Source of the DNA: Candidatus Nomurabacteria bacterium
Lineage (GTDB): Bacteria; Patescibacteriota; Minisyncoccia; Phycocordibacterales; UBA9973
Assembly (NCBI GenBank): GCA_020845875.1
Contig: JADLEY010000009.1
Coordinates: 3,907 to 67,906 of the forward strand
Reading direction: 5' to 3'
DNA length: 64,000 nucleotides
Position numbers and translations under genes: made by a program. The notes beneath the pieces were generated by a model. That model was not told the DNA's origin and searched no databases. It was given only the letters and a program-made list of their open reading frames with translations. Positions 7,030-49,451 of this stretch are shown one piece after another. Each line of letters starts with the position of its first letter. The stretch's first letter is position 1.

Positions 7030-7696
7030 TTTTCCTATGACTGCTTTTGTTGAACAATTGATTACAATGATTTTAGCGCAAGGTGCGCTGGGAGTATTTC
7101 TTGCTTCCGTGATTGAAGAGATTATTGTACCGATTCCTTCGACAATCATTCAGACAGGTGCTGCCTTTCTTTTTCTTTCAGGGCATTCATTTTCGATGCA
7201 GTCGATCGGTATTTTTCTTTTCAAAATTGTTTTGCCAACAGCGGCAGGGGCGACCATTGGGACGCTAATGCTTTATGGTCTGGCGTACTGGGGCGGGTTG
7301 CCATTTATCCAACGATGGGGAAAATACTTCTTTGTTACCGAATCAAAGATTCGCCAGGCGCATGATACTGTCCTTTCGCATCGTAGTCTCTTGTGGGGGT
7401 TTTGTATTTTACGGTTTATTCCTCTCTTGCCTAATGCGCTCATTACCGCAGGGGCAGGATTTTTACGGATCCCTTTTTGGTCGTATCTTTGGACAACCTT
7501 TATCGGTATCTTTGTTCGCGCGCTCTATCTTGGTATTACTGGCTGGCTGACAGGAGAAGCATACCAGTCACTTGATGTACAGCGCAGCTTTTTTGGTATG
7601 ATGTCGTCACTTGTTTTAGGAATTACTGTGGTGACTGTCGTTGTCACATTGATTGTTCGTGCGTATGCCAAAAAGACTTTTCGTCGACATCGCTAG
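6983..7696 (+). CDS. DedA/SNARE-associated (VTT domain) membrane protein. The start is probably the internal Met near 7037.
   Basis: Multi-TM protein with FRFIPLLPNALITAGAGFLRIPFWSYLWTTFIG, the VTT signature. Confidence 0.6.
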   Translation: MWDLMEERAIRSLYGDFPMTAFVEQLITMILAQGALGVFLASVIEEIIVPIPSTIIQTGAAFLFLSGHSFSMQSIGIFLFKIVLPTAAGATIGTLMLYGLAYWGGLPFIQRWGKYFFVTESKIRQAHDTVLSHRSLLWGFCILRFIPLLPNALITAGAGFLRIPFWSYLWTTFIGIFVRALYLGITGWLTGEAYQSLDVQRSFFGMMSSLVLGITVVTVVVTLIVRAYAKKTFRRHR

Positions 7697-8513
7697 TTTC
7701 CGCCGCTCCGTCATGCAGCATTATCGTCGTGCTGGCAGACACGATCTTCCATGGCGGCAGACGACAAACTCGTACCGAGTTCTCGTGTCTGAAATAATGC
7801 TACAACAGACGCAAGTGTCGCGAGTTGAGGAGAAATATCAGTTGTTTCTCCGACAATTTCCGACACTTGCTCGGCTCGCTGCAGCACCACTTTCATCGGT
7901 GCTCGCGGTGTGGAGTGGTCTAGGTTACAACCGTCGTGCGAAGTTTCTTCATGAAGCGGCGCGGGAAATCGTACAAAAATACCATGGGAGTATGCCTCGC
8001 ACAGTAGAAGGACTCGAGGCGCTCCCAGGAGTCGGTCCGTACACGGCGCGCGCGGTTGCTGCATTTGCTTACGAACAACCGACAGTGTTTATCGAAACAA
8101 ATATACGCACCGTATTTATTCATCACTTTTTTACGCACAAGCAGATTGTCTCTGATAAAGATATCTTTCCACTTATCGAGATTACTCTCGATAAAAAGCA
8201 TCCTGCCGCATGGTATGCAGCACTCATGGACTATGGTGTGTTTCTTAAAGAGAGAGGTTCTCGAGTGCATCGCAAAAGTTTCCAGTATAAAAAACAATCA
8301 CCTCTGCAAGGGTCACGTCGAGAAGTGCGCGGAGCAATTCTCAAAGCACTCGTTCAACGTAGTCACTCGGCTGCATCATTGATAAAAAAGACGGGATTCT
8401 CGTCAGAACGCATAACAGAAGCGCTTCAGACATTGATAAGAGATGCTATGATTATTCGTTGTCGACAAGAGCAATATCTTCTACCGGGTCAAGATCAATC
8501 GGAGCAGAAGTAG
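7653..8513 (+). CDS. MutY/EndoIII-like HhH-GPD DNA glycosylase without Fe-S cluster cysteines. Probable start at MQHYRR (~7713).
   Basis: HDLPWRQTTNSYRVLVSEIMLQQTQV and the HhH motif LEALPGVGPYTARAVAAFAY. No C-x6-C-x2-C-x5-C cluster. Confidence 0.6.
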   Translation: MFVRMPKRLFVDIASFRRSVMQHYRRAGRHDLPWRQTTNSYRVLVSEIMLQQTQVSRVEEKYQLFLRQFPTLARLAAAPLSSVLAVWSGLGYNRRAKFLHEAAREIVQKYHGSMPRTVEGLEALPGVGPYTARAVAAFAYEQPTVFIETNIRTVFIHHFFTHKQIVSDKDIFPLIEITLDKKHPAAWYAALMDYGVFLKERGSRVHRKSFQYKKQSPLQGSRREVRGAILKALVQRSHSAASLIKKTGFSSERITEALQTLIRDAMIIRCRQEQYLLPGQDQSEQK

Positions 8514-9685: not shown

Positions 9686-11557
9686 CTAAATAGTGAGAAT
9701 GACAGGAATAACCAGTGGTCGTTTCGCAGTCTTCTGGAGGAGAAACTTCGCCACCGTCTCTGCGAGATCGTTTTTAAGAGCGTCACCATTGAGTGGCTGG
9801 CGCGATGCCGCCTGCTCAATGGTCCGCTTCACAAGGATACGTGTCTGACGCAGAAGTTCCTGATTTTCTTTCAGATAAACGAATCCTCGCGAGATGATAT
9901 CAGGGCTCTTTTTGAGTGAGTTGTTGCGCGTATCGAGGACTGCCATGATGATAAACATGCCATCTTCTGCCAGAAGTTGCCGGTCGCGAAGCACAACGTT
10001 TTGTTCGTCGCCGACCGAAAAGCCGTCTACAATCATCGGACTTGCCGGCGCTTTATCCTTGCGGACAGAGATTTTCTGACCATCAGCGGAGATCTCAATA
10101 ATCGAGCCGTTGTCAGGGACAACGATATGATCTTCTGGCATACCTATTTCCATCGCGAGCTCTTTGTGCAATTCGAGGTGGTAGTGGTGTCCGTGAATCG
10201 GGATAAAGAATTTCTCATTCATTTTGCGGTGGAGCCACTTGATATCCTCTTTGTTGCCGTGACCTGTCGCGTGTACGTACTCTTCTCCAGGAGTACGATA
10301 GGAAATAATCTTCACTCCCTGACGAGAGAGGCCGTCTTTCATGGACTGCACCGCGCGCTCGTTTCCTGGAATGACTGACGCAGAGAGAATGATGCGATCG
10401 CCCTTTTTGAGAGAGAGTTTTTTGTTAGTCTTTTGTGCGAGACGATTGAGACCGCCAAATTCTTCTCCCTGTGCGCCGGTAATAAGGACGAGGATCCGAC
10501 TGGGTGGATAGTTTTCTATTTCATCTACTGAGATAATAGTATCTTTCTTTGGTTTCAGGAGTCCTGCCTGTATCGCGATTTCGACGTTGGTCTTCATACT
10601 GCGTCCTTCGAGCACGATTTTCTTGCCCAGCTCTTCTGCAATCTGTACGACCCGAATGAGGCGAGTGATGTGAGAGGCAAATGCTGCCATAAAGATGCGG
10701 TTATTTTTCTCGCGGCGTAGGATGTTTTCGAGTCCCTGATGCACTTTGACTTCTGGCAATGCAAATCCTTCGTTTTCGATGTTTGTCGAGTCGGTCATCA
10801 GGAGTAGTACGTTTGCATTGTCAAACTGCTTGTACTCTGCTTCTTCGCTCGCTGTCACGATACCGTCGATCTGGTCGAGCTTGTAGTCTCCTGGATTTAC
10901 GATAAGTCCGTGAGGTGTCTCGATAATGACCCCCATGGAGTCAGGGATCGTGTGCGTCACACCCCAGAAGCGCACTTTGATAGCACCGAGTGTTACTACA
11001 TCATCCTTTTCGACGATATTGATATTCATCGCAGGGAGGTGTGGAAACTCGCTCTGCCGCTTCTTCATAAGAAGGACGGTGAGATTGCGCGAATACACTG
11101 GCGGATTGCCGATGCGCGAGAGTACGAGCGGGACGCCGCCGATGTGATCGAGGTGTCCGTGTGTGATGATAAGTGCCCGGATTTTATCTTTGCGCTCTTC
11201 GAGGTAGCGGGTATTGGGGATGACGTAATCGATACCAGGAGTTTCACCGGTGGCGAAGTGCATGCCTGCATCGATAACAATGATATCGTTTCCGATTTCG
11301 ATAGCGGTCATGTTCTTGCCGATTTCTTCGACGCCGCCGAGAGGGATAATCCGTACCACTCCTGCTTCTGGTGCAGGAATGTGCGCTGTCTTGGGGATCA
11401 TAGATTCTGCAGAGGGGGCAAGATCTGTCGGAGGACGAGTGGGACGGCGATTGCGTTCAAAAGGGCGGCGCGCTCCAAAACGCTTCTTAGGAGCGGTACG
11501 AGGTGCATGCATCTGATGCGAAGTGTTCGGTTTGTGTTGGTGGACGGGGGTATTCAT
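9686..11557 (-). CDS. rnj: Ribonuclease J (beta-CASP metallo-beta-lactamase) with a basic N-terminal extension
   Basis: HGHLDHIGG motif and beta-CASP region; overall collinear with RNase J. Confidence 0.9.
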   Translation of the reverse strand: MNTPVHQHKPNTSHQMHAPRTAPKKRFGARRPFERNRRPTRPPTDLAPSAESMIPKTAHIPAPEAGVVRIIPLGGVEEIGKNMTAIEIGNDIIVIDAGMHFATGETPGIDYVIPNTRYLEERKDKIRALIITHGHLDHIGGVPLVLSRIGNPPVYSRNLTVLLMKKRQSEFPHLPAMNINIVEKDDVVTLGAIKVRFWGVTHTIPDSMGVIIETPHGLIVNPGDYKLDQIDGIVTASEEAEYKQFDNANVLLLMTDSTNIENEGFALPEVKVHQGLENILRREKNNRIFMAAFASHITRLIRVVQIAEELGKKIVLEGRSMKTNVEIAIQAGLLKPKKDTIISVDEIENYPPSRILVLITGAQGEEFGGLNRLAQKTNKKLSLKKGDRIILSASVIPGNERAVQSMKDGLSRQGVKIISYRTPGEEYVHATGHGNKEDIKWLHRKMNEKFFIPIHGHHYHLELHKELAMEIGMPEDHIVVPDNGSIIEISADGQKISVRKDKAPASPMIVDGFSVGDEQNVVLRDRQLLAEDGMFIIMAVLDTRNNSLKKSPDIISRGFVYLKENQELLRQTRILVKRTIEQAASRQPLNGDALKNDLAETVAKFLLQKTAKRPLVIPVILTI

Positions 11558-40499: not shown

Positions 40500-42605
40500 A
40501 TGAATCATGGACAGCTGTACGTTATGACCCTTTCGAAGACAAAAAATAATTCTGTATTTACTCTCTCCGACCACTTCGTGCCGGCGGGCGATCAGCCAAA
40601 GGCAATAGAAGGATTGGTGAAAGGCCTAAAGAAAGGGATGCCGATGCAGACGCTTCTGGGCGCCACAGGCACGGGCAAGACCTTCACTATGGCGAATGTC
40701 CTCGCGCAGATGGGCAAGCCCACGCTCGTCATTGCGCACAACAAGACGCTTGCGGCGCAGCTTGCGAGCGAATTTAGAGCATTTTTTCCTGATGCTGCGG
40801 TGCACTACTTCGTTTCGTACTACGACTATTACCAGCCAGAAGCATATCTGCCGACGACCGATACGTATATCGAAAAAGATGCCTCTATCAACAAAGAGAT
40901 AGATAGATTGCGCCATGCCACTACCCAGTCGCTTCTGACACGCAAAGATGTGATTATCGTCGCATCAGTCTCGTGTATTTATGGATTGGGAAGCCCTGCC
41001 GAATATGAAAAGACCAATTTTAAAATAGAAAAAGACATGGCACTCTCGCGTACGCAGGCGATGGAAAAGCTCGTATCAATACACTTCTCTCGTACCAACG
41101 CCGACCTTACTCCCGGTACGTTTCGTGCGCTCGGTAATCGCCTCGATGTCATGCCAGTCAATGATACGGTGATGTATCAAATAGACTTTTCGGGAAATGC
41201 AGTGCAGGGCATTACCAAGATAGACCCTGTCTCATCGCGCATCATTCGTGAAGAAGATTCTATTTTTATTTTCCCTGCGAAGCACTTCATCACCAACAAA
41301 GACGAAAAGGAACGCGCAGTGCGCGATATTGCAGAAGAATTGAAAGGACAGCTTGCGAAGTTTGAAAAAGAAGGCAAGTTGTTGGAAGCAGAGCGCCTCA
41401 AGCGCCGTACCAACTACGACCTCGCGATGATTAAAGAAATGGGCTACACCGCAGGGATAGAAAATTATTCTCGTCATATGAGCGGCAAATCTGCAGGTGA
41501 ACCACCAGATACGCTCTTGTCGTACTTTCCAAAAGACTTCCTCCTCTTCATAGACGAATCTCATGTCACTGTCCCGCAGCTCTCTGCAATGTATTCCGGA
41601 GATGCTGCGCGTAAAGAGACGCTGGTGGAGTTTGGATTTCGTCTGCCGAGTGCAAAGGATAATCGACCGCTGAAGTTTGAAGAGTTCACGAAGCGTATTG
41701 GACAGACGGTGTTTGTCTCTGCAACTCCAGGAAAGTACGAGCGCGAACACAGCGAGCAGACGGTGGAACAGATTATTAGGCCGACAGGACTGGTGGATCC
41801 GATGGTGGAAGTACGACCGATACTAGAGAACAAGGAGTATACAGGGCAGGTGCATGACTTTATTGCAGAAGTAGAGAAAGAAATTGCCAGTGGCGGGCGA
41901 GTGCTCGCAACCACGCTCACCAAAAAAATGGCAGAAGACCTTGCGGCATACCTCAAAGACAAAAAGATAAAGGCGGAGTACCTGCACAGTGATGTGAAGA
42001 CGATTGAACGCATCAAAATCATCACCGACCTGCGTAAAGGGAAGTTTGATGTGCTGGTCGGCGTCAATCTCCTGCGCGAAGGTCTCGACATGCCAGAGGT
42101 CTCGCTCATCGGCATTCTCGATGCGGACAAAGAAGGCTTCTTGCGCAGCGATGTGTCGCTGGTGCAGACTATTGGGCGTGCGGCGCGAAATGTAAATGGC
42201 CGCGTCATTCTCTATGCCGACAGCATCACCGGCTCCATGGAGCGCGCCATCGGCGAGACCAGCCGCCGCCGCGACATACAACTTGCGTACAATCGTGAGC
42301 ACGGCATTACGCCCAAGACCATTGAAAAGAAAATCCACGACATCACAGAGAGCATGGAGAGCGAACACGACAAAGCGGTGAGCGCCGAGCTCTCGCTCGA
42401 TATGGAGCTTTTTGCTGCGGTAGCCGAAATGGAAAAGAAGGGTAAAAAGGGCGGACGCCTTACCAAAAATCCCATCCAAAAACTCATCAAAATGAAAGAG
42501 GATGAGATGAAAGAGGCAGTCAGAGTGCTCGATTTCGAGACAGCGGCCATCCTCCGCGACGAAATCAAAGCCCTTCACAACAAACTAGAAACGAAGATAG
42601 AATAG
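40500..42605 (+). CDS. uvrB: Excinuclease ABC subunit B
   Basis: Helicase motifs (GATGTGKT, DESH), beta-hairpin region, C-terminal UVR domain (RVLDFETAAILRDEIKAL). Confidence 0.95.
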   Translation: MNHGQLYVMTLSKTKNNSVFTLSDHFVPAGDQPKAIEGLVKGLKKGMPMQTLLGATGTGKTFTMANVLAQMGKPTLVIAHNKTLAAQLASEFRAFFPDAAVHYFVSYYDYYQPEAYLPTTDTYIEKDASINKEIDRLRHATTQSLLTRKDVIIVASVSCIYGLGSPAEYEKTNFKIEKDMALSRTQAMEKLVSIHFSRTNADLTPGTFRALGNRLDVMPVNDTVMYQIDFSGNAVQGITKIDPVSSRIIREEDSIFIFPAKHFITNKDEKERAVRDIAEELKGQLAKFEKEGKLLEAERLKRRTNYDLAMIKEMGYTAGIENYSRHMSGKSAGEPPDTLLSYFPKDFLLFIDESHVTVPQLSAMYSGDAARKETLVEFGFRLPSAKDNRPLKFEEFTKRIGQTVFVSATPGKYEREHSEQTVEQIIRPTGLVDPMVEVRPILENKEYTGQVHDFIAEVEKEIASGGRVLATTLTKKMAEDLAAYLKDKKIKAEYLHSDVKTIERIKIITDLRKGKFDVLVGVNLLREGLDMPEVSLIGILDADKEGFLRSDVSLVQTIGRAARNVNGRVILYADSITGSMERAIGETSRRRDIQLAYNREHGITPKTIEKKIHDITESMESEHDKAVSAELSLDMELFAAVAEMEKKGKKGGRLTKNPIQKLIKMKEDEMKEAVRVLDFETAAILRDEIKALHNKLETKIE

Positions 42606-42610
42606 TAGGT

Positions 42611-43042
42611 ATGCAGCTCAACATCAAAAAACTTCACCCAGATGCGACGCTCCCGACTAAAGGGCATCCGGGCGATGCGGGGATAGATTTTTATACGTTG
42701 GAAGAGGTGGTGTTTGCACCGAGGGCGCAGATGCGTGTACCGACCGGTATCGCCCTCGAGATTCCCGACGGGCATGTTGGGCTCGTGTGGGACAAGTCGA
42801 GTATCTCGTTCAACAACCATCTCAAAATAATGGGTGGGGTGATAGACGCAGGATTTCGAGGAGAGTTTGTCGCTTCTCTTGTGAATATGTCGGAGGACAC
42901 GCAGGTGCTCAAAAAAGGACAGAAGTTTACCCAAATGCTTATCCAGAAGTTTGAAGATTGCGATATCGTGGAGGTAGATGCGCTTTCCGATACCGTTCGC
43001 GGAGCAGGGCGAGAGGGGAGCACGGGGCACGGACTCGCATAG
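42611..43042 (+). CDS. dut: dUTP diphosphatase
   Basis: PTKGHPGDAGIDFY and GVIDAGFRGE motifs. Confidence 0.9.
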   Translation: MQLNIKKLHPDATLPTKGHPGDAGIDFYTLEEVVFAPRAQMRVPTGIALEIPDGHVGLVWDKSSISFNNHLKIMGGVIDAGFRGEFVASLVNMSEDTQVLKKGQKFTQMLIQKFEDCDIVEVDALSDTVRGAGREGSTGHGLA

Positions 43043-43059
43043 TCTGCTATACTGTGGCT

Positions 43060-43458
43060 ATGAAAAAAGGATACCACGCAAACATTGAGCAGCTGACCAA
43101 AGAAAATACCACCTTCCGCAAGGTGCTGTACACTGGCGCGCATCTGCAGCTCGTCTTGATGACGCTCCAGTCGGCAGAAGAGATAGGGCTTGAAGTGCAC
43201 GAGGAGAACGATCAGTTTTTCCGCTTCGAATCGGGACTTGGTACTGTGCTCGTCGGTGAGACGGAGTACATGGTGGGCGATGGTGATACAGTCATCGTAC
43301 CTGCGGGTACCCAGCACAACGTCATGAATACGGGAAGTGAACCACTCAAACTCTACACGATCTACTCACCGGCACATCACAAAGACGGCATTGTGCGTGC
43401 TACCAAGGCAGAAGCTGAGGCGAGTGAAGAAGAGTTTGATGGTGCGACCACTGAATAA
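43060..43458 (+). CDS. Cupin-domain protein
   Basis: Two-His/Glu beta-barrel motif region (HEENDQFFRFESG…VPAGTQHNVMN). Confidence 0.55.
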   Translation: MKKGYHANIEQLTKENTTFRKVLYTGAHLQLVLMTLQSAEEIGLEVHEENDQFFRFESGLGTVLVGETEYMVGDGDTVIVPAGTQHNVMNTGSEPLKLYTIYSPAHHKDGIVRATKAEAEASEEEFDGATTE

Positions 43459-43464
43459 CTCGCG

Positions 43465-43680
43465 ATGTTTATAAAGGTACGGGTGTTTCCGGAAAGCAGT
43501 GAGGACAAGATAAAACAGCAGTCAGATGACGTGTTTGATGTCCGCGTGCGTGCCGCAGCCCAAAATGGTCATGCCAACCGCGAAGTGATACATCTGCTCT
43601 CCAAACATTTCAACGCTGGCGTGAAGCTTGTCTCAGGCGGTACCCGAAGTCACAAGATTTTTGAAGTGACGGGGAAGTAG
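43465..43680 (+). CDS. DUF167/YggU-family small protein
   Basis: VRVFPESSEDKI…VRVRAAAQNGHANREVIHLLSKHFNAGVKLVSGGTRSHKIFEV is the typical YggU core. Confidence 0.55.
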   Translation: MFIKVRVFPESSEDKIKQQSDDVFDVRVRAAAQNGHANREVIHLLSKHFNAGVKLVSGGTRSHKIFEVTGK

Positions 43681-43947
43681 GCTTGACTTTCGGTACCCTC
43701 GATAGGATAATCGAGATGTATGATGGAAAAAATGAATTTCACGGGACCTTCTATTATAGAGGATATGGCGGTGGCACGGGTAATTGAGTCAATGGAAAAA
43801 ACAAACGATGTTGCCGGGCTTGAGGCGATGAAAGTAGGTGAAGAAGAAGGATCAAAGACACTCACTCGTATCAACGCTGCCATCGAGCGTCTCAAACAGA
43901 AAGAAGAACCAAATCAATAATTATCAAAACCGTACCAAAATGCGGTT

Positions 43948-44388
43948 TTACTTTTTCACCGGATGCAGATGCGCCGCAATCCCAATAGCAGCGGCGATGA
44001 GCGCGAGGTTTTTGATGATGTATTGGCCCTCAAGGGTGGGTACCCACGCCCTCTGCCAGGTCGCTTCTTTGAGGTAGATGAGCGGGAGGAAGGTCGTGAC
44101 CATATGGAAAAGGAGGAGCGGGAGGACTATGCGTTCTGCGCCGGGGATAAGAAAGAGGATGCCGATGAGCATTTCAAACAATGCGAAAAGGAGGTAGAAG
44201 GTATCAAACGACATCCAATTGATGGTCTGGTCAAACAGTGAGTGTACCAGTGCACCTGCAGGAGAGAGGCCGAGGGCTTTCAAGAGGCCAAACCAGAAGA
44301 AAACAACGAAGAGCGCAATGCGCGCTGCTGGTACACTGATACGGCGGAAAAAATGGATAAGATGGATGTCGAGGGTGCGTAGTGACAT
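43948..44388 (-). CDS. DoxX-family membrane protein
   Basis: 4-TM DoxX-like topology. Confidence 0.5.
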   Translation of the reverse strand: MSLRTLDIHLIHFFRRISVPAARIALFVVFFWFGLLKALGLSPAGALVHSLFDQTINWMSFDTFYLLFALFEMLIGILFLIPGAERIVLPLLLFHMVTTFLPLIYLKEATWQRAWVPTLEGQYIIKNLALIAAAIGIAAHLHPVKK

Positions 44389-44474
44389 AGTAGGAGTATA
44401 TCACTCTCGACTACTTAGGAGACAAAATCCCGCATCGAAGCGGGATTTTGCTATAGGAGAAAGTCTGACGTGAT

Positions 44475-44702
44475 TTACATTGTTGTTGCTTTCTGTTGGG
44501 GTGCATTGCACTCCTTGCAGCGCTTATGGTGTCCAAAAATTTCGCACAGCGCCGAAAGACCGACAAGGATGTAAATAATGCGCGAAATAGTTGCGCCCAT
44601 CCCACCGAAGAGTTGGCCAATATCCCAGCCAAAAAGTCCAACTAATAGCCAATTCAATCCTCCAATAACCAAAAGCACAAACGCGAGCTTATGTAATTTC
44701 AT
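44475..44702 (-). CDS. DUF378-family small membrane protein
   Basis: GGLNWLLVGLFGWDIGQLFGG signature. Confidence 0.55.
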   Translation of the reverse strand: MKLHKLAFVLLVIGGLNWLLVGLFGWDIGQLFGGMGATISRIIYILVGLSALCEIFGHHKRCKECNAPQQKATTM

Positions 44703-44842
44703 AATAATGTATATTACTTGATAATACGCGTACCACTCTAGTATAACCCTTTTTACTTCTGTCCATATGAGAAGCTGTGGAGAATGAGGGATAGTATGCT
44801 ACAATCGCCCTATGCACCCCCTCGCGCACTTGCGGAGGGGAT

Positions 44843-47479
44843 TTGGAGGTTTATATGGCAGTCAAAAAAACACTAGCAGAACAGGGGGAGATTGTAGTAA
44901 AAGGTGCGCGCACCCACAATCTCAAAAACATCTCCGTCACGATGCCCAGGGGCAAGATGATTGCCATCACGGGCCTGTCGGGGAGCGGGAAGAGCTCGCT
45001 CGCATTTGATACCATTTTTGCCGAAGGGCAGCGACGGTATGTGGAGAGCTTGTCGAGCTATGCACGGCAGTTTTTGAACCAGATGCCTAAGCCCGATGTT
45101 GATGAGATTACAGGGCTCTCTCCTGCAATTTCGATTGACCAAAAATCCCGCTCCAACAACCCGCGCTCCACGGTGGCGACTATTACAGAGATATATGACT
45201 ACCTCCGTGTCTTGTATGCGCGCGTGGGGAGAGCATACTGTCCGGTGTGTGGGACACATATCACCAAGCTCTCGCAGGAGGAGATAAACAATTTTATCCT
45301 CGCCAAAATCAAGGAACTTTCAAAGACAACGAATAAGAAGGTGATGAACGTAGAGTTCAACGATACGCGCATACAGGTGTATGCACCGATTGTTCGCGGA
45401 CGAAAAGGGGAATACTACCAGCTCCTCTATGATCTGCTCGGCAAGGGCTTTGCAACAGTGCGTGTAGATGGCATGACACACAGCCTACGCGAAAAGATAG
45501 AGCTCAAGAAAAATGACAAACATACGATAGAAGTCTTGGTCGATGAGCTCGCCGTGCATGAGTTCAAAGATAATCCGCGCGATGCGGAGCTGCGCCTCGC
45601 GGAGGCGGTGGAGCGGGCGCTTCTGGAGGCGGATGGACTGGTGCAGATTGTGTTCGGTGCCTCCGCAGACTTCGACATGCAGACGGACGTGGCGAGCGAA
45701 TTTCTCCTTTCGTCAAAGTTTGCCTGCCCGAACGACGGCTTTTCATTTCCAGAAATAGAACCGAGACTGTTTTCATTCAACAGCCCATATGGCGCGTGCC
45801 CGGAATGCAACGGCATCGGCACGAAGTTTTTTGGCGGCACCGAGCCGTGTGAAGTCTGCGGCGGCAAACGGCTGCGCACCGAGGCATTGCATGTGTATTT
45901 AGAAGATACCAAAAGCAAGACGAACATCGTCGACCTCACCTCTTTTTCGGTAGAGCAGACGTTTGATTTCTTCGATTCGCTCAAGCTTTCGGCAAAAGAC
46001 AGGGAAGTGGCAAAGGCGGTGCTGAAGGAAATAGAAGACCGCCTCACCTTCCTCCTCAATGTGGGACTGGAATACCTCGCGCTCTCTCGTACGACAAACA
46101 CGCTTTCGGGCGGCGAAGCACAGCGCATCCGCCTCGCCTCACAGCTCGGCAGTCGCCTTGTGGGGGCGATGTATGTGCTCGACGAGCCGACCATCGGGCT
46201 TCACCAGCGTGACAACGAGCGGCTTATCAAGACGCTCGAAGACTTACGTGATATTGGTAATACGATTGTAGTGGTGGAGCACGATGAAGATACGATTCTC
46301 GCATCGGACTATATGGTAGAAATCGGGCCAGGTGCCGGCATCCACGGCGGGAATGTCATCGTAGCAGATGATTTACAGAAGCTCTTGAATGCAAAAACAA
46401 ATCCAAGCAAATCACGCACGCTCGCATACCTGCGTCGTGATGAAGAAATCGCCATACCGGACAAGCGCCGCGACGACGACAAGGGCGCACTCAAAGTGGT
46501 CGGTGCAAAGCTGCACAATATCGATAATCAAAATATTGAGGTGCCGTTGGGTCGTATGGTGGCTATTACTGGCGTAAGTGGTTCGGGCAAGAGCACCTTC
46601 CTTTATGATATTTTGCACAAAAATCTGCAGGGCCGGTTTGAACGCAAACACCGCACAGCGCAGGTTCATAACGCCGCATCGTTTTCCGGTACCGAATATC
46701 TTTCGCGCGCAATCATGATTGACCAGTCGCCGATTGGTCGCACCCCACGAAGCAACATCGCCACCTATACCGGTGCGTTTACGCACATTCGTGATTTGTT
46801 TGCTGCGACAGAGGAGGCGCGCCTGCGCGGGTGGAAGATCAATCGTTTCTCATTCAATGTGAAAGGGGGGCGGTGTGAGGCATGTGAGGGAAATGGAGAG
46901 ATCGCGGTGGAGATGCACTTCCTCCCCACTGTGTATGTCACCTGTGATGTGTGTGGTGGCAAGCGATTTGATAAAGAGACGCTGACGGTGAAATACAAGC
47001 GCAAGAGCATCTACGATGTCCTTCAGCTCTCTGTCGAAGAAGCGCTGGAGTTCTTTGGTGATATTCCTGCAATATACGACCGATTGAAGACACTCAATGA
47101 TGTGGGGCTTGGCTATGTGAAGCTGGGACAGAGCGCCACCACGCTCTCTGGTGGAGAGGCGCAGCGTGTGAAGATTGCGAGTGAGCTGTACCGCCCGTGG
47201 ATGGAAAAGACAATCTATCTTCTTGATGAGCCAACGGTAGGGTTGCACTATGACGATGTAAAAAATCTTATCGCTGTATTAAATCGGCTCGTAGCGAAAG
47301 GGAATACCGTAGTGGTGATTGAGCACAATCTCGACCTCATCAAGTGCGCTGATTATCTGATTGACTTCGGTCCCGAAGGAGGAGCGCACGGCGGAAAAAT
47401 CATCGCAAAAGGCACGCCGGAAGAAGTAGCGAACAATCCCAAGTCGCACACAGGGAAGTATCTGAAGAAAATTTTGTAA
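44843..47479 (+). CDS. uvrA: Excinuclease ABC subunit A. Probable start at MAVKK (~44855).
   Basis: Two ABC ATPase modules ([20 protein letters not shown]), Zn-finger CxxC pairs, two LSGGEAQR signatures. Confidence 0.95.
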
Positions 47480-47480
47480 T

Positions 47481-48137
47481 ATGACTCCGCGCGAGCTGGA
47501 ACAAAGAAAAGAAATTTGGAAAAAGATCGCGCCGGTATTGCTCAAACAGTATCGCCGCGATGAGACGTTTTTGACGTGGGCAAATCCGTGGCAGCTGACG
47601 GTCGCGGTCACGCTCTCGGCACAGACGACGGATGATATGGTGAACAAGGTCACGCCGGCACTTTTTAAGAAATATCCGACTCCCGCGAAGCTCGCCGCTG
47701 CGCCAGTGGGTGATATTGAGAAACTGATAAGCAGGCTCGGATTTTTCCGCAGTAAAGCGAAGTATATAAAGGCAGCCGCGAAAATCGTCGCTGACGATTT
47801 TCGCGGCGTGATTCCGCACGATCCAATCGAGCTCCAAAAACTTCAGGGCATCGGTCGTAAAGGTGCAGTGGCGGTGATTTCAAACGCGTATCCCAAGTAT
47901 GCCAACATCGGCATTCCAGTGGACACGCATGTTATCCGATTCGCGAAGCGTTTCGGTCTCTCTAGACAAACTGATCCGTCAAAAATAGAACAAGACCTTC
48001 TACAAATCATTCCTAAAAAAGACTGGAAACGCGCCGGCTACGCCATCAAAGAATACGGTCGCAAAGAGGGCAAAGCTCGCGCCTACAATCCCGCCCTTGA
48101 TCCGCTCATGCAGGCAATAAAAAATTGTGTTAGATAA
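47481..48137 (+). CDS. nth: Endonuclease III-like HhH-GPD glycosylase (no Fe-S cysteines)
   Basis: LTVAVTLSAQTTD…HhH LQKLQGIGRKGAVAV…VDTHVIR. The stop codon sits inside a hairpin that terminates the convergent gene. Confidence 0.7.
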   Translation: MTPRELEQRKEIWKKIAPVLLKQYRRDETFLTWANPWQLTVAVTLSAQTTDDMVNKVTPALFKKYPTPAKLAAAPVGDIEKLISRLGFFRSKAKYIKAAAKIVADDFRGVIPHDPIELQKLQGIGRKGAVAVISNAYPKYANIGIPVDTHVIRFAKRFGLSRQTDPSKIEQDLLQIIPKKDWKRAGYAIKEYGRKEGKARAYNPALDPLMQAIKNCVR

Positions 48138-48147
48138 AATCTAACAC
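48117..48147 (-). terminator. Hairpin tgtgttagat-aaa-atctaacaca with a T-tract on the minus strand; terminator for the 78-aa minus-strand gene. It overlaps the nth stop.
   Basis: Perfect 10-bp inverted repeat preceded on the + strand by aaaaaa. Confidence 0.55.
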
Positions 48148-48160
48148 AATCAGTTAATTG

Positions 48161-48397
48161 CTACTTTCTCAAAAAGGAAGGCACATCTGGCACATCTTGT
48201 AATATTTTATATGCTTCTTCAAAAATAGTTTGATGTTCTTTGTCAAAGTTTCTTGAAGCAGTATATTGCTCCCGGATTTGTTCCCATGTTAGATCTTCGT
48301 AAACCTTGTATGAGCGGTATGCGTACCCAGAGTCAATATATTTTTTCTTTGAGATGCTATCAGCAATCTTCATTGCTATTGCGTATGCATTTTCCAT
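48161..48397 (-). CDS. Hypothetical 78-aa soluble protein, first small-gene module of the CRISPR island
   Basis: ORF bracketed by its own promoter (copy 1 of TTGACGAATCATA-N17-TATCAT) and terminator. No recognisable family. Confidence 0.4.
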   Translation of the reverse strand: MENAYAIAMKIADSISKKKYIDSGYAYRSYKVYEDLTWEQIREQYTASRNFDKEHQTIFEEAYKILQDVPDVPSFLRK

Positions 48398-48415
48398 AAT
48401 TTTAAGTCTTGCGTT

Positions 48416-48447
48416 ATGATAGCATGTATCTTATGATTCGTCAAGAG
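48416..48447 (-). promoter_or_regulatory. Promoter-core copy 1 (minus strand TTGACG-N17-TATCAT); the + strand carries the uvrC-start remnant ATGATTCGTCAAGAGAAATAA
   Basis: + strand 48431-48447 ttatgattcgtcaagag; −10 reverse complement at 48416-48421; −35 reverse complement at 48439-48444. Confidence 0.55.
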
Positions 48448-48451
48448 AAAT

Positions 48452-48485
48452 AAAAACTGCGTTAGGTCTTGCCTAACGCAGTTTT
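48452..48485 (-). terminator. Bidirectional hairpin terminator H1 (ctgcgttagg-tcttg-cctaacgcag) flanked by A5/T4
   Basis: 10-bp perfect stem. On the minus strand it is followed by ttttatttctc, and it ends the 49-aa TM-protein gene. Confidence 0.65.
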
Positions 48486-48555
48486 GCTTTGCTCTTTCTG
48501 TATCTGTATTTTTCAGCCAAATCGTATAAAGATTGGCACAACAACATAACAAGCG

Positions 48556-48705
48556 TCACGAGCAGCCAAAAATATATCCTGATAGGATTGCTAACAGCGG
48601 ATTTACAGAGATAGCCGCGATAGCACAAATGACGCAAGTGATTGGCCAAATACAGAATAGGTAACCCGCAAAGACGAATACTTTTACAAAGTTATACCAT
48701 TTCAT
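48556..48705 (-). CDS. Hypothetical 49-aa Cys-rich two-TM micro-protein (not in the ORF track because it is under 60 aa)
   Basis: Hand-translated MKWYNFVKVFVFAGYLFCIWPITCVICAIAAISVNPLLAILSGYIFGCS. Bracketed by promoter copy 2 and terminator H1. Confidence 0.35.
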   Translation of the reverse strand: MKWYNFVKVFVFAGYLFCIWPITCVICAIAAISVNPLLAILSGYIFGCS

Positions 48706-48722
48706 TTTTTAAGTTTTGTGAT

Positions 48723-48754
48723 ACTATACTGCCTATATTATGATTCGTCAAGAT
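48723..48754 (-). promoter_or_regulatory. Promoter-core copy 2 (minus strand TTGACG-N17-TATAGT)
   Basis: + strand 48738-48754 ttatgattcgtcaagat; −10 reverse complement 48723-48728. Confidence 0.5.
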
Positions 48755-48800
48755 TTAAAAAAACTCTTACCTTACGTCCTCTTGCAAATCAAAAACCTGA

Positions 48801-48836
48801 TATACTCAAACTATGCTATCGCGCAAAATGAGTATA
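48801..48836. repeat. 36-bp palindrome copy U (TATACTCA-aactatGCTATCGCgcaaaa-TGAGTATA) overlapping the start codon(s) of the wHTH::Cas2-like gene
   Basis: Perfect 8-bp outer inverted arms. A second direct copy is at 49338-49373. Confidence 0.6.
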
Positions 48837-49334
48837 GAAGAGAAAATTATGAGATTTCTGTACGACAGAAAGTATTTGCACGCTCTCGCATTTAGTACCC
48901 TGCTACAAGAACCTTCTTTTTCTTCATACAAACCACAATCCATACGAAACGCGCTCACTAAGCTTTCGAAACAAGAACTAGTGCGCACCGGTGCCGACGG
49001 TATCATGCTCCACACAAAGGGGAGAGCGTATATAGAACAGAGGATGGCGCGGCTTCAACTATTTGATTCGCCGTTTACCAAGAATGCCCCGAAAAATCTG
49101 CTCGTGCTTTTTGATATCCCCGAAGATTGCAAGGCTGAGCGGGAGTGGTTTCGCCGGCAGCTCCGCGAGTTTGGCTACGACATGGTGCAAAAGAGTGTAT
49201 GGCTCGGACCGTCGCCATTGCCGAAAGAATTTGTGGAATATGTAAAAACTATCGGATTGCGCGATTGCATCAAAACATTTCGCCTCGCCCGCAATCAGCA
49301 GAGTGAACTGAAAAACAGCAAGATGAAAAAATAA
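48813..49334 (+). CDS. Winged-helix (PaaX/MarR-like) N-terminal domain fused to a Cas2/VapD-like ferredoxin-fold C-terminal domain; candidate adaptation/regulatory component
   Basis: C-terminal 'NLLVLFDIPEDCKAEREWFRRQLREFGYDMVQKSVWLGP…IKTFRL' has the Cas2 beta1(…YDV/FDI…)-alpha1-beta2(…RVQ.SVF…) pattern. The N-terminal ~90 aa look like a wHTH. The gene lies in the cas neighbourhood and is flanked by palindromes. Confidence 0.5.
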   Translation: MLSRKMSIEEKIMRFLYDRKYLHALAFSTLLQEPSFSSYKPQSIRNALTKLSKQELVRTGADGIMLHTKGRAYIEQRMARLQLFDSPFTKNAPKNLLVLFDIPEDCKAEREWFRRQLREFGYDMVQKSVWLGPSPLPKEFVEYVKTIGLRDCIKTFRLARNQQSELKNSKMKK

Positions 49335-49337
49335 CTA

Positions 49338-49373
49338 TATACTCATTCTGTGCTATCGCACAATTTGAGTATA
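49338..49373. repeat. 36-bp palindrome copy D (TATACTCA-ttctGTGCTATCGCACaatt-TGAGTATA) immediately after the wHTH::Cas2-like stop
   Basis: Same outer arms and GCTATCGC core as copy U. Confidence 0.6.
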
Positions 49374-49406
49374 TGCATGTTTCTGGTGTGTGAGAATTAT
49401 TGAGTA

Positions 49407-49439
49407 ATAAAAAACTGCGCTGGGTTGTGCCTAGTGCAG
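49407..49439 (-). terminator. Hairpin terminator H2 (degenerate copy of H1) ending the 77-aa minus-strand gene
   Basis: ctgcgctggg-ttgtg-cctagtgcag with aaaaaa/tttttt flanks; shares the aaaactgcg…cgcagt frame with H1. Confidence 0.5.
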
Positions 49440-49451
49440 TAGTAGTTTCAT

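Follow-up and report, generated by a model that had tools for sequence, protein, structure and literature searches.

The 64,000-nt stretch of Candidatus Nomurabacteria bacterium DNA analysed here (contig JADLEY010000009.1, positions 3,907 to 67,906; hereafter the window) carries, between nth and the repair gene uvrC, an island of small reverse open reading frames (ORFs), a PaaX/Cas2-like gene and a miniature type V CRISPR-Cas module. At the left edge of this island lies a mini-ORF, ATG ATT CGT CAA GAG AAA TAA (MIRQEK*), that looks like a dead copy of the uvrC start. An earlier note on this DNA took it for one half of an attL/attR-type pair left by a single site-specific insertion. We found four copies of the repeat rather than two, and the explanation that we favour, with moderate confidence, is that a compact bidirectional promoter unit of uvrC has been reused and left at the joints as cassettes were added stepwise. 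MIRQEK* would then form the right side of a unit, U1, that has three paralogues (U2 to U4), all of them uvrC promoter units of ~55 nt.

The mini-ORF occupies 48433-48453, the start given in the earlier note (48431) being 2 nt early, and uvrC begins at 52356 with ATGATTCGTCAAGATTTG, just as that note had it. The core ATGATTCGTCAAGA has four exact copies, at 48433, 48740, 49719 and 52356 (the last being uvrC itself), and no further one in the 64 kb. A 15-mer, TATGATTCGTCAAGA, is exact at 48432, 48739, 49718 and 52355, all on the + strand, and has no other exact copy in the 64 kb; the chance expectation for one given 15-mer is ~1e-4 exact copies (128,000 positions / 4^15), and the four-core family is far beyond chance. 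Allowing up to 3 mismatches on both strands of the whole window returned nothing beyond these four. Anchored on the ATG, the copies are homologous between about -40 and +14/+28, more or less the span between the two -35 boxes, and the paralogous unit, U, is ~55 nt long; the uvrC unit that is compared with the L081 repeat below measures ~65-70 nt. The match of the mini-ORF's flank to the palindrome region upstream of uvrC was also confirmed (48410-48446 v 52333-52369, 78% identity over 37 nt, palindromic -10 region included). These comparisons support a derivation of the copies, as paralogues of one unit, from the promoter and 5' end of uvrC. Both members of the repeat pair in the earlier note are therefore real, but they belong to a family of four co-oriented copies, each at a module joint, and a single attL/attR pair from one insertion was not borne out. 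Its proposal that the island arose by duplication of the uvrC 5' end fared similarly: the copies are uvrC-derived and empty sites exist, whereas the four copies at module joints tell against a single-insertion origin.

On the minus strand the core reads TCTTGACGAATCAT and contains TTGACG, a near-consensus -35 box that is the reverse complement of uvrC codons 3-4 (CGT CAA). It is followed, after 16-17 nt, by TATCAT, TATAGT or TATTAT. A blind consensus scan placed minus-strand promoters at exactly the four cores (48444->48416, 48751->48723, 49730->49703 and 52367->52339), each scoring 10/12, and only the Cas12-like gene's own promoter scored higher. In the four window copies the -10 boxes of the two strands overlap with a 1-nt offset (TATGAT/TATCAT, TACTAT/TATAGT, TATAAT/TATTAT and TATGAT/TATCAT), and all four have the reciprocal -11A/-7T arrangement, which puts the predicted transcription start sites (TSSs) 18 bp apart in every copy (48427 (+) and 48409 (-) in U1). 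A rightward -35-like box (TTTTCA/TTTCCA) shares bases with the divergent gene's start codon, so that U is bounded by its two -35 boxes, and the uvrC leader predicted from the rightward promoter is 5-6 nt. The spacers of the window copies differ, yet both hexamers and a fixed distance to the divergent ATG are kept. RpoD with region 4 is encoded in the window. U thus reads as a predicted symmetric bidirectional sigma-70 promoter, whose activity and TSSs we infer from these matches. The idea that the copies are inert scars was not upheld, as their conserved part matches the leftward -35 and -10.

The same arrangement was seen in relatives, whose loci carry L numbers below. In about 25 species with UvrC 60-74% identical, uvrC begins ATGATTCGTCAAGA, normally with one copy in the 20 kb, and an extended -10 sits 11-12 nt upstream of the gene; by this comparison the core is native to uvrC and old. 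Arg3 of uvrC is CGT in 29/30 species, although CGT makes up 27% of all Arg codons, and the share of the top codon is at most 0.57 at 16 other conserved Arg columns of UvrC; Gln4 is CAA in 30/30. Codons 3-4 are thus conserved as nucleotides, with a synonymous constraint on the hexamer. The leftward -35 (at least 5/6 matches) is present in 33/34 native and 10/12 paralogous copies across species (11/12 on our own reading, if a 1-nt register shift in L081 is allowed), and a correctly spaced leftward -10 in 25/34 native and 10/12 paralogous copies. Most copies have a divergent ATG 17-18 nt past the leftward -10, and in 16 of about 24 species divergent ORFs, mostly mutually unrelated, begin 34-36 nt from the uvrC ATG. 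In U4 the leftward promoter faces no ORF, just a conserved region and the CRISPR array. Two decayed copies, in L097 and L081, have lost the uvrC ATG while their -35 is now the consensus TTGACA.

The divergent ORFs at 34-36 nt in relatives L001-L033 encode 49-124 aa and are membrane-like, acidic or of other types. Most of these small reverse ORFs showed no homology to one another, with only two orthologous groups among them, and the site upstream of uvrC looks like a hotspot of gene turnover, or of gene birth at a hard-wired start codon. The window's own three (r78, r49 and r77) gave no tblastn hits against 80 uvrC loci.

Several observations weigh against a purely functional account of U. The promoters and TSSs are consensus matches only. 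Copy B of L059 (at 3192) has an exact 28-nt core without a leftward -10 or a leftward gene, from which it follows that function alone is insufficient for exactness and that gene conversion is needed; two L101 units, U237 and U1498, point in the same direction, being identical over 48 nt with the unconstrained spacer included. The ATGATT part of the core is leftward spacer, normally unconstrained, but the window copies agree in it exactly. Of five species without a recognisable leftward -10, four keep the native hexamer intact, and a second constraint on it, for example from the translation start region, is possible. With neither homologues nor family matches, r78, r49 and r77 may not all be real genes.

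Loci with fewer modules bear on how the copies came to lie at module joints. The order uvrA-nth-uvrC-ddl is conserved among relatives, and the empty sites foreseen in the earlier note were found, with nth immediately next to uvrC and only one core, in L002, L015, L021, L046, L060 and L061. Additional U copies are confined to loci that have additional modules upstream of uvrC, the number of cores being four in the window, three each in L059 and L101, and two each in L093, L099, L096 and L097. The island of L059 is syntenic and holds three exact cores (nth, r83, core, PaaX/Cas2-like, core, Cas12-like, Cas1, two repeats, core-uvrC); its copies A and B share 96% identity over 28 nt. A UvrC tree groups the window with L001, and L059 with L002 and L005; L001, L002 and L005 all lack the island, so the two island-bearing species are not sisters and the island's distribution is patchy. 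Next to the leftmost copy of L059 is a reverse gene with 54% identity to the one that immediately precedes uvrC in the island-free L004, and its L093 equivalent is 40-48% identical to those of L007 and L023. This orthology of left neighbours indicates that the leftmost unit is the ancestral junction and that modules were added rightward of it, inside the uvrC 5' end; it also supports the suggestion that insertion regenerated the uvrC start, with the new copy restoring uvrC. For the window's r78, no orthology to the uvrC-adjacent gene of an island-free relative was found.

The PaaX/Cas2-like module also occurs apart from the CRISPR module. The product of its gene, a winged helix-turn-helix (wHTH) protein, belongs to a Patescibacteria family of at least 200 clusters, and in 6/7 further species the gene is a close upstream neighbour of uvrC, and neither a Cas12-like gene nor cas1 nor an array intervenes (the contig of the seventh, L103/L104, ends before uvrC). 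We scored these species for a uvrC promoter/core copy ~70-100 nt upstream of the PaaX/Cas2-like ATG, to which the window's U2 is orthologous. The copy is exact in L101, has 1 mismatch in L093 and L099 and 3 mismatches in L096 and L097 (the same record as L024), and is absent from L102 and L103. A copy on the PaaX/Cas2-like side, exact or decayed, is found in six further species, four of them demonstrably without a CRISPR module near uvrC. Core copies in relatives without that module had been named beforehand as the observation that would tell against one island, and they decouple the repeats from it. L101 also breaks an apparent rule by which exact extra cores would be confined to islands with CRISPR. 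The junction of the core with GAAATAA and the terminator hairpin, seen at U1, recurs in L101 on the other side of the PaaX/Cas2-like gene, which suggests a conserved promoter-terminator punctuation moved by recombination among U copies.

The terminator, T (AAAAA-GCGYTAGG..CCTARCGC-TTTT), recurs at cassette ends with 68-81% identity, within and between species (in L101 at ~900 and ~1225). T travels with U. Tandem duplication of whole terminator-gene-U cassettes was ruled out, as the interiors are unrelated and only T and U are common to them.

In the explanation that we favour, modules would have come in one step at a time, a little inside the 5' end of uvrC, and every addition would have left a copy of U behind; we infer this manner of duplication from the empty sites, from the left neighbours shared by L059 with L004 and by L093 with L007 and L023, and from species with a U-cas2l-...-U-uvrC arrangement and no CRISPR module. 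Each leftward unit between nth and uvrC (r78, r49, r77 and possibly the CRISPR leader/array) would have its own U on its right. The uvrC codons in U1 would survive because they are promoter DNA, namely the -35, for r78, and the rightward transcript of U1 would be a by-product halted at once by the bidirectional terminator T1, which is placed to end the rightward RNA of ~60 nt predicted for U1 as well as r49's leftward transcript. Neither the PaaX/Cas2-like nor the Cas12-like gene needs a U copy for its expression, as each has its own promoter. Recombination or gene conversion between the copies would later have reshuffled and homogenised U.

A related module at another site bears on how such additions occur. 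In L081 a Cas12-like module (59% identical) lies away from uvrC and is flanked, together with its CRISPR array, by an 87-nt direct repeat (7818-7904 and 10046-10132, 92% identical), a duplicated stretch from the 3' end of a metallophosphoesterase gene. Of cas1 this module has no more than a vestigial start, and just inside its right end is a decayed uvrC unit whose leftward promoter is intact. To judge by L081, the module seems to take its U along when it moves, and long repeats seem to be made or used at insertion. A tRNA-like sequence (7455-7710), its acceptor and T-arm recognisable by eye, lies immediately to the left of the 87-nt repeat and has a ~180-nt interruption; it may be an intron-containing tRNA gene, and ARAGORN called no tRNA beside the repeat.

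We weighed four other origins for the repeats. They could be classical attachment (att) scars: one or more recombinase-driven insertions at the core in the uvrC 5' end would have carried in a replacement promoter and start, and the repeats would be attL/attR and the hybrid att sites of tandem insertions, regenerated by the recombinase and hence exact. This would account for single-core empty sites with extra copies only beside extra modules upstream of uvrC, for the patchy occurrence of the island in two non-sister species, for the direct repeat of a gene 3' end around the L081 module and for the exactness of L059 copy B, which has no promoter role. However, no integrase or recombinase, for which the earlier note had advised a search, was found by Pfam scans of the island, of the gene calls within 6 kb on either side or of 30 further ORFs in the 64-kb window. 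The copy near the PaaX/Cas2-like gene is variably decayed in four species and absent in two, the homology exceeds a core and reaches the size of a promoter, the conserved positions coincide with promoter hexamers, and the L081 site is unrelated to uvrC and so leaves no single att specificity; we therefore consider att scars unlikely. Still less probable, in our view, are long target-site duplications, in which staggered breaks 65-90 bp apart would have been filled in, by a transposition-like or a Cas1/casposase-like process, and some of the products later co-opted as promoters. The uvrC unit (~65-70 nt) and the 92% identical L081 repeat (87 nt) are indeed similar in length, the L081 repeat is not a promoter, and the module encodes Cas1, an integrase. 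Known Cas1 and casposase integrations duplicate about 14-50 bp, a range that these repeats exceed; Cas1 is truncated here and vestigial in L081, the PaaX/Cas2-like module has a U copy in species without cas1, and no terminal inverted repeats were noticed. An inverted-repeat search found no terminal inverted pair at the module ends, and there was no transposase among the island and scanned window ORFs; with a length of ~65-87 nt and neither of these companions, the repeats do not have the character of transposon target-site duplications.

The copies could instead be non-functional relics, held identical solely by gene conversion or unequal crossing-over with the constrained uvrC start. Identity of the two L101 units through an unconstrained spacer, and near-identity of L059 copies A and B although copy B lacks promoter features, is what such relics would show. 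The window spacers differ, however, while the hexamers and the distance to the divergent ATG hold, the decayed L097 and L081 copies retain or improve only the -35 and -10, and in L081 the unit persists far from uvrC; we give relics as small a chance as long target duplications. Very improbable, to our mind, is a shared regulatory target, the core being either an operator for the wHTH PaaX/Cas2-like protein or the target of a nuclease-dead Cas12-like ribonucleoprotein, in the manner of repression by TldR or Cas12m. That the effector family looks catalytically dead, that the wHTH protein is a conserved neighbour of uvrC and that the core overlaps promoters would fit such a role, but no guide-like copy of the core turned up on either strand of the 64-kb window with 3 mismatches allowed, the window has no match to a spacer, the wHTH gene has distinct palindromes of its own, and the core is kept in about 25 species with no Cas12-like or PaaX/Cas2-like gene within 10 kb on either side of uvrC.

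Table 1. Features of the nth-uvrC interval, listed in their order along the window (window coordinates; promoter elements and start sites are predicted)
Feature	Position	Strand	Description
nth	47481-48137		
T0	48123-48151		bidirectional hairpin terminator that follows both nth and the 78-aa reverse ORF r78; 68% similar to T1
r78	48161-48397	-	78-aa divergent ORF, no family match; predicted to be driven by the U1 leftward promoter
U1	48391-48446		unit holding the MIRQEK* core
U1 rightward promoter	-35-like 48391-48396; -10 48415-48420	+	TTTCCA, TATGAT; predicted TSS 48427
U1 leftward promoter	-35 48444->48439; -10 48421->48416	-	TTGACG (reverse complement of CGT CAA), TATCAT; predicted TSS 48409
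MIRQEK* mini-ORF	48433-48453	+	uvrC-derived core ATGATTCGTCAAGA joined after +14 to GAAATAA and terminator T1
T1	48453-48485		bidirectional intrinsic terminator, 14-15 bp stem; 81% identical to T2
r49	48556-48705	-	49-aa hydrophobic divergent ORF beyond the U2 leftward promoter
U2	48698-48753		core ATG 48740
U2 leftward promoter	-35 48751->48746; -10 48728->48723	-	TTGACG, 17-nt spacer, TATAGT
U2 rightward promoter	48722-48727	+	TGA-TACTAT
Palindrome	48800-48836; second copy 49337-49374		ATATACTCA..TGAGTATA; holds the PaaX/Cas2-like gene's own -10, TATACT, 6 nt before ATG 48813
PaaX/Cas2-like gene	48813-49334	+	wHTH + PaaX_M/Cas2-like protein, 173 aa
T2	49410-49440		terminator-like hairpin, paralogue of T1
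r77	49452-49685	-	77-aa acidic divergent ORF beyond the U3 leftward promoter
U3	49679-49732		core ATG 49719 (MIRQD*)
U3 rightward promoter	49679-49707	+	TTTCCA-17-TGT TATAAT
U3 leftward promoter	-35 49730->49725; -10 49708->49703	-	TTGACG, 16-nt spacer, TATTAT
Cas12-like gene's own promoter	49750-49777	+	TTGACA-16-TATAAT, 12/12 consensus
Cas12-like effector	49802-51124	+	440 aa, mini TnpB/Cas12f-like
Cas1	51173-51904	+	short, 243 aa; matches only the C-terminal catalytic half of Cas1 profiles
CRISPR array	51916-52154		half repeat and three 39-nt repeats, three spacers
Conserved region beside array	52155-52312		~160 nt; candidate leader or trans-activating CRISPR RNA (tracrRNA)
U4 (native uvrC promoter)	52333-52369		unit preceding and overlapping the uvrC start
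U4 rightward promoter	52338-52343	+	TGC-TATGAT, then ATG 52356
U4 leftward promoter	-35 52367->52362; -10 52344->52339	-	TTGACG, 17-nt spacer, TATCAT; faces the conserved region and array
uvrC	52356-53555	+	399 aa; GIY-YIG, UVR and RNase H-like domains

The PaaX/Cas2-like gene is bracketed by copies of the palindrome (ATATACTCA..GCTATCGC..TGAGTATAT) in the window and also in L059, L024 and L101. The position of its -10 predicts a leaderless mRNA, and the palindrome over its promoter suggests autoregulation. Elsewhere in the window, uvrB, uvrA, nth and uvrC all lie inside 13 kb (40500-53555), there is a second HhH-GPD glycosylase gene at 7653-8513, and at the left edge (63-1592) a 509-aa Peptidase_S74 (endosialidase chaperone) protein, a domain typical of phage tail fibres, adjoins housekeeping genes.

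The cargo of the last module is an unusual CRISPR-Cas system. The effector matched PADLOC Cas12_x1 (CAS-V-F, E = 7e-30) and NCBIfam guided_TnpB (E = 9e-22, below the cut-off of guided_TnpB), and it matched TnpB structures in the PDB; Cas1 matched TIGR00287 above cut-off. A TnpB/Cas12 RuvC-fold effector beside a CRISPR array with cas1 places the module in type V. However, the effector family has neither a zinc finger nor CxxC motifs, its RuvC-II Glu is replaced by I or K in many members and its RuvC-III Asp position is E or G. With no intact RuvC D-E-D triad and no zinc-finger/TNB domain, the effector is probably nuclease-dead, although the lineage retains cas1 and a strain-variable spacer array. 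Among 5.8 billion protein clusters it has only six close relatives (P0001-P0006), and the distant relatives number 268 representatives of ~400-450 aa (P0009-P0026 among them). A profile search of the same set added no Cas12-like members, scans of metagenome and viral proteins for patterns of the family returned nothing, and a scan of metagenome DNA for the pattern of the conserved post-array motif was equally empty. Counterparts of the short Cas1 are found in L059 (4725-5473) and L092 (4741-5460); the L059 species' gene is split by frameshifts in the NCBI assembly and intact in a Logan contig of the same species.

Compared with the window, the array of the near-identical strain L085 (8128-8425) has one additional spacer, at an internal position, and array content thus differs between strains by internal gain or loss; being internal, the spacer does not point to the leader end of the array. 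Three divergent loci (the window, L059 5578-5740 and L081 9800-9975) conserve the ~160-170 nt region next to the array, with hairpins that change on both sides in the three sequences, and Rfam gave it sub-threshold chance hits only. The region is a candidate for a leader or a tracrRNA, and the U4 leftward promoter faces into it. Neither the spacers nor the fixed sequence that follows the last repeat matched anything else in the window, in which no repeat-like sequence was found in front of the cores either. The idea that the core is a guide or its target was set aside, there being no further core, spacer or post-repeat match in the window.

All of these elements can be drawn together in a broader reading that we regard as possible but doubtful. 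The nth-uvrC interval would be a recombinase-independent cassette array, punctuated by a portable ~55-nt bidirectional promoter and a bidirectional terminator. Each -35 would be written into the first codons of the opposing gene, and the hard-wired ATG and leftward promoter would express any DNA inserted beside them, and this would account for the way in which unrelated ORFan genes come and go at a constant 34-nt offset. U would also promote the leader/tracrRNA or precursor CRISPR RNA of a mobile, nuclease-dead mini type V CRISPR-Cas module, which would carry U along when it moves, as in L081, and insert with unusually long target duplications of 65-90 nt.

What looks like a dead gene start may be working promoter DNA, with the first codons of a repair gene doubling as its neighbour's -35; such a double role for codons 3-4 would explain their extreme synonymous conservation in 30 uvrC species. 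Very small genomes may add genes by copying a compact promoter-plus-terminator unit, which would make a cassette ready for expression and leave uvrC undisturbed. The picture of a single integrated island is corrected, and a rare, apparently nuclease-dead mini type V CRISPR-Cas system gains a defined regulatory context.

The nearest known counterparts of U are the symmetric bidirectional promoters of bacteria, which PMC10268837, drawing on Warman et al. 2021, describes as having overlapping opposite-strand -10 elements with reciprocal -11A/-7T and producing mRNAs both ways; TSSs 18 bp apart are given there as the commonest configuration (PMC10268837). U is like them in its overlapping reciprocal -10 boxes and its predicted TSSs 18 bp apart. 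Unlike them, it has each predicted -35 inside the first codons of the other gene, so that coding and promoter sequence would be interlocked, and as a ~55-nt unit copied four times it would serve as punctuation between cassettes.

The effector belongs beside the nuclease-inactive derivatives of type V nucleases and TnpB (Cas12m, Cas12k, TldR and dCas12f; PMC10691335, PMC10705468), being small and TnpB/Cas12f-like with a CAS-V-F match and RuvC-II/III residues that are not conserved. It differs from them in keeping cas1 and a spacer array, in lacking the zinc finger wholly and in that no target for it was found in the core or the promoter. It forms part of the island's cargo, and the repeat is not explained by it. 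Integron cassette arrays resemble the interval in their tandem small, unrelated, same-orientation genes beside a fixed site, here bounded by a recurring U and hairpin T. However, there is no intI among the scanned ORFs, T scores as an ordinary A-run/hairpin/T-run bidirectional terminator, and every cassette has its own promoter, with no reliance on a common Pc.

Integrative and conjugative elements of the SXT/R391 type integrate at the 5' end of a gene, prfC, and supply a new promoter and start. The interval is like them in its 5'-end insertion with a regenerated start, its direct repeats at the borders and the empty sites in relatives. It is unlike them in that no integrase was found, the repeats number four rather than two and fall on predicted promoter elements, the modules are tiny (0.3-2.6 kb), and a related module lies at an unrelated site with a different repeat.

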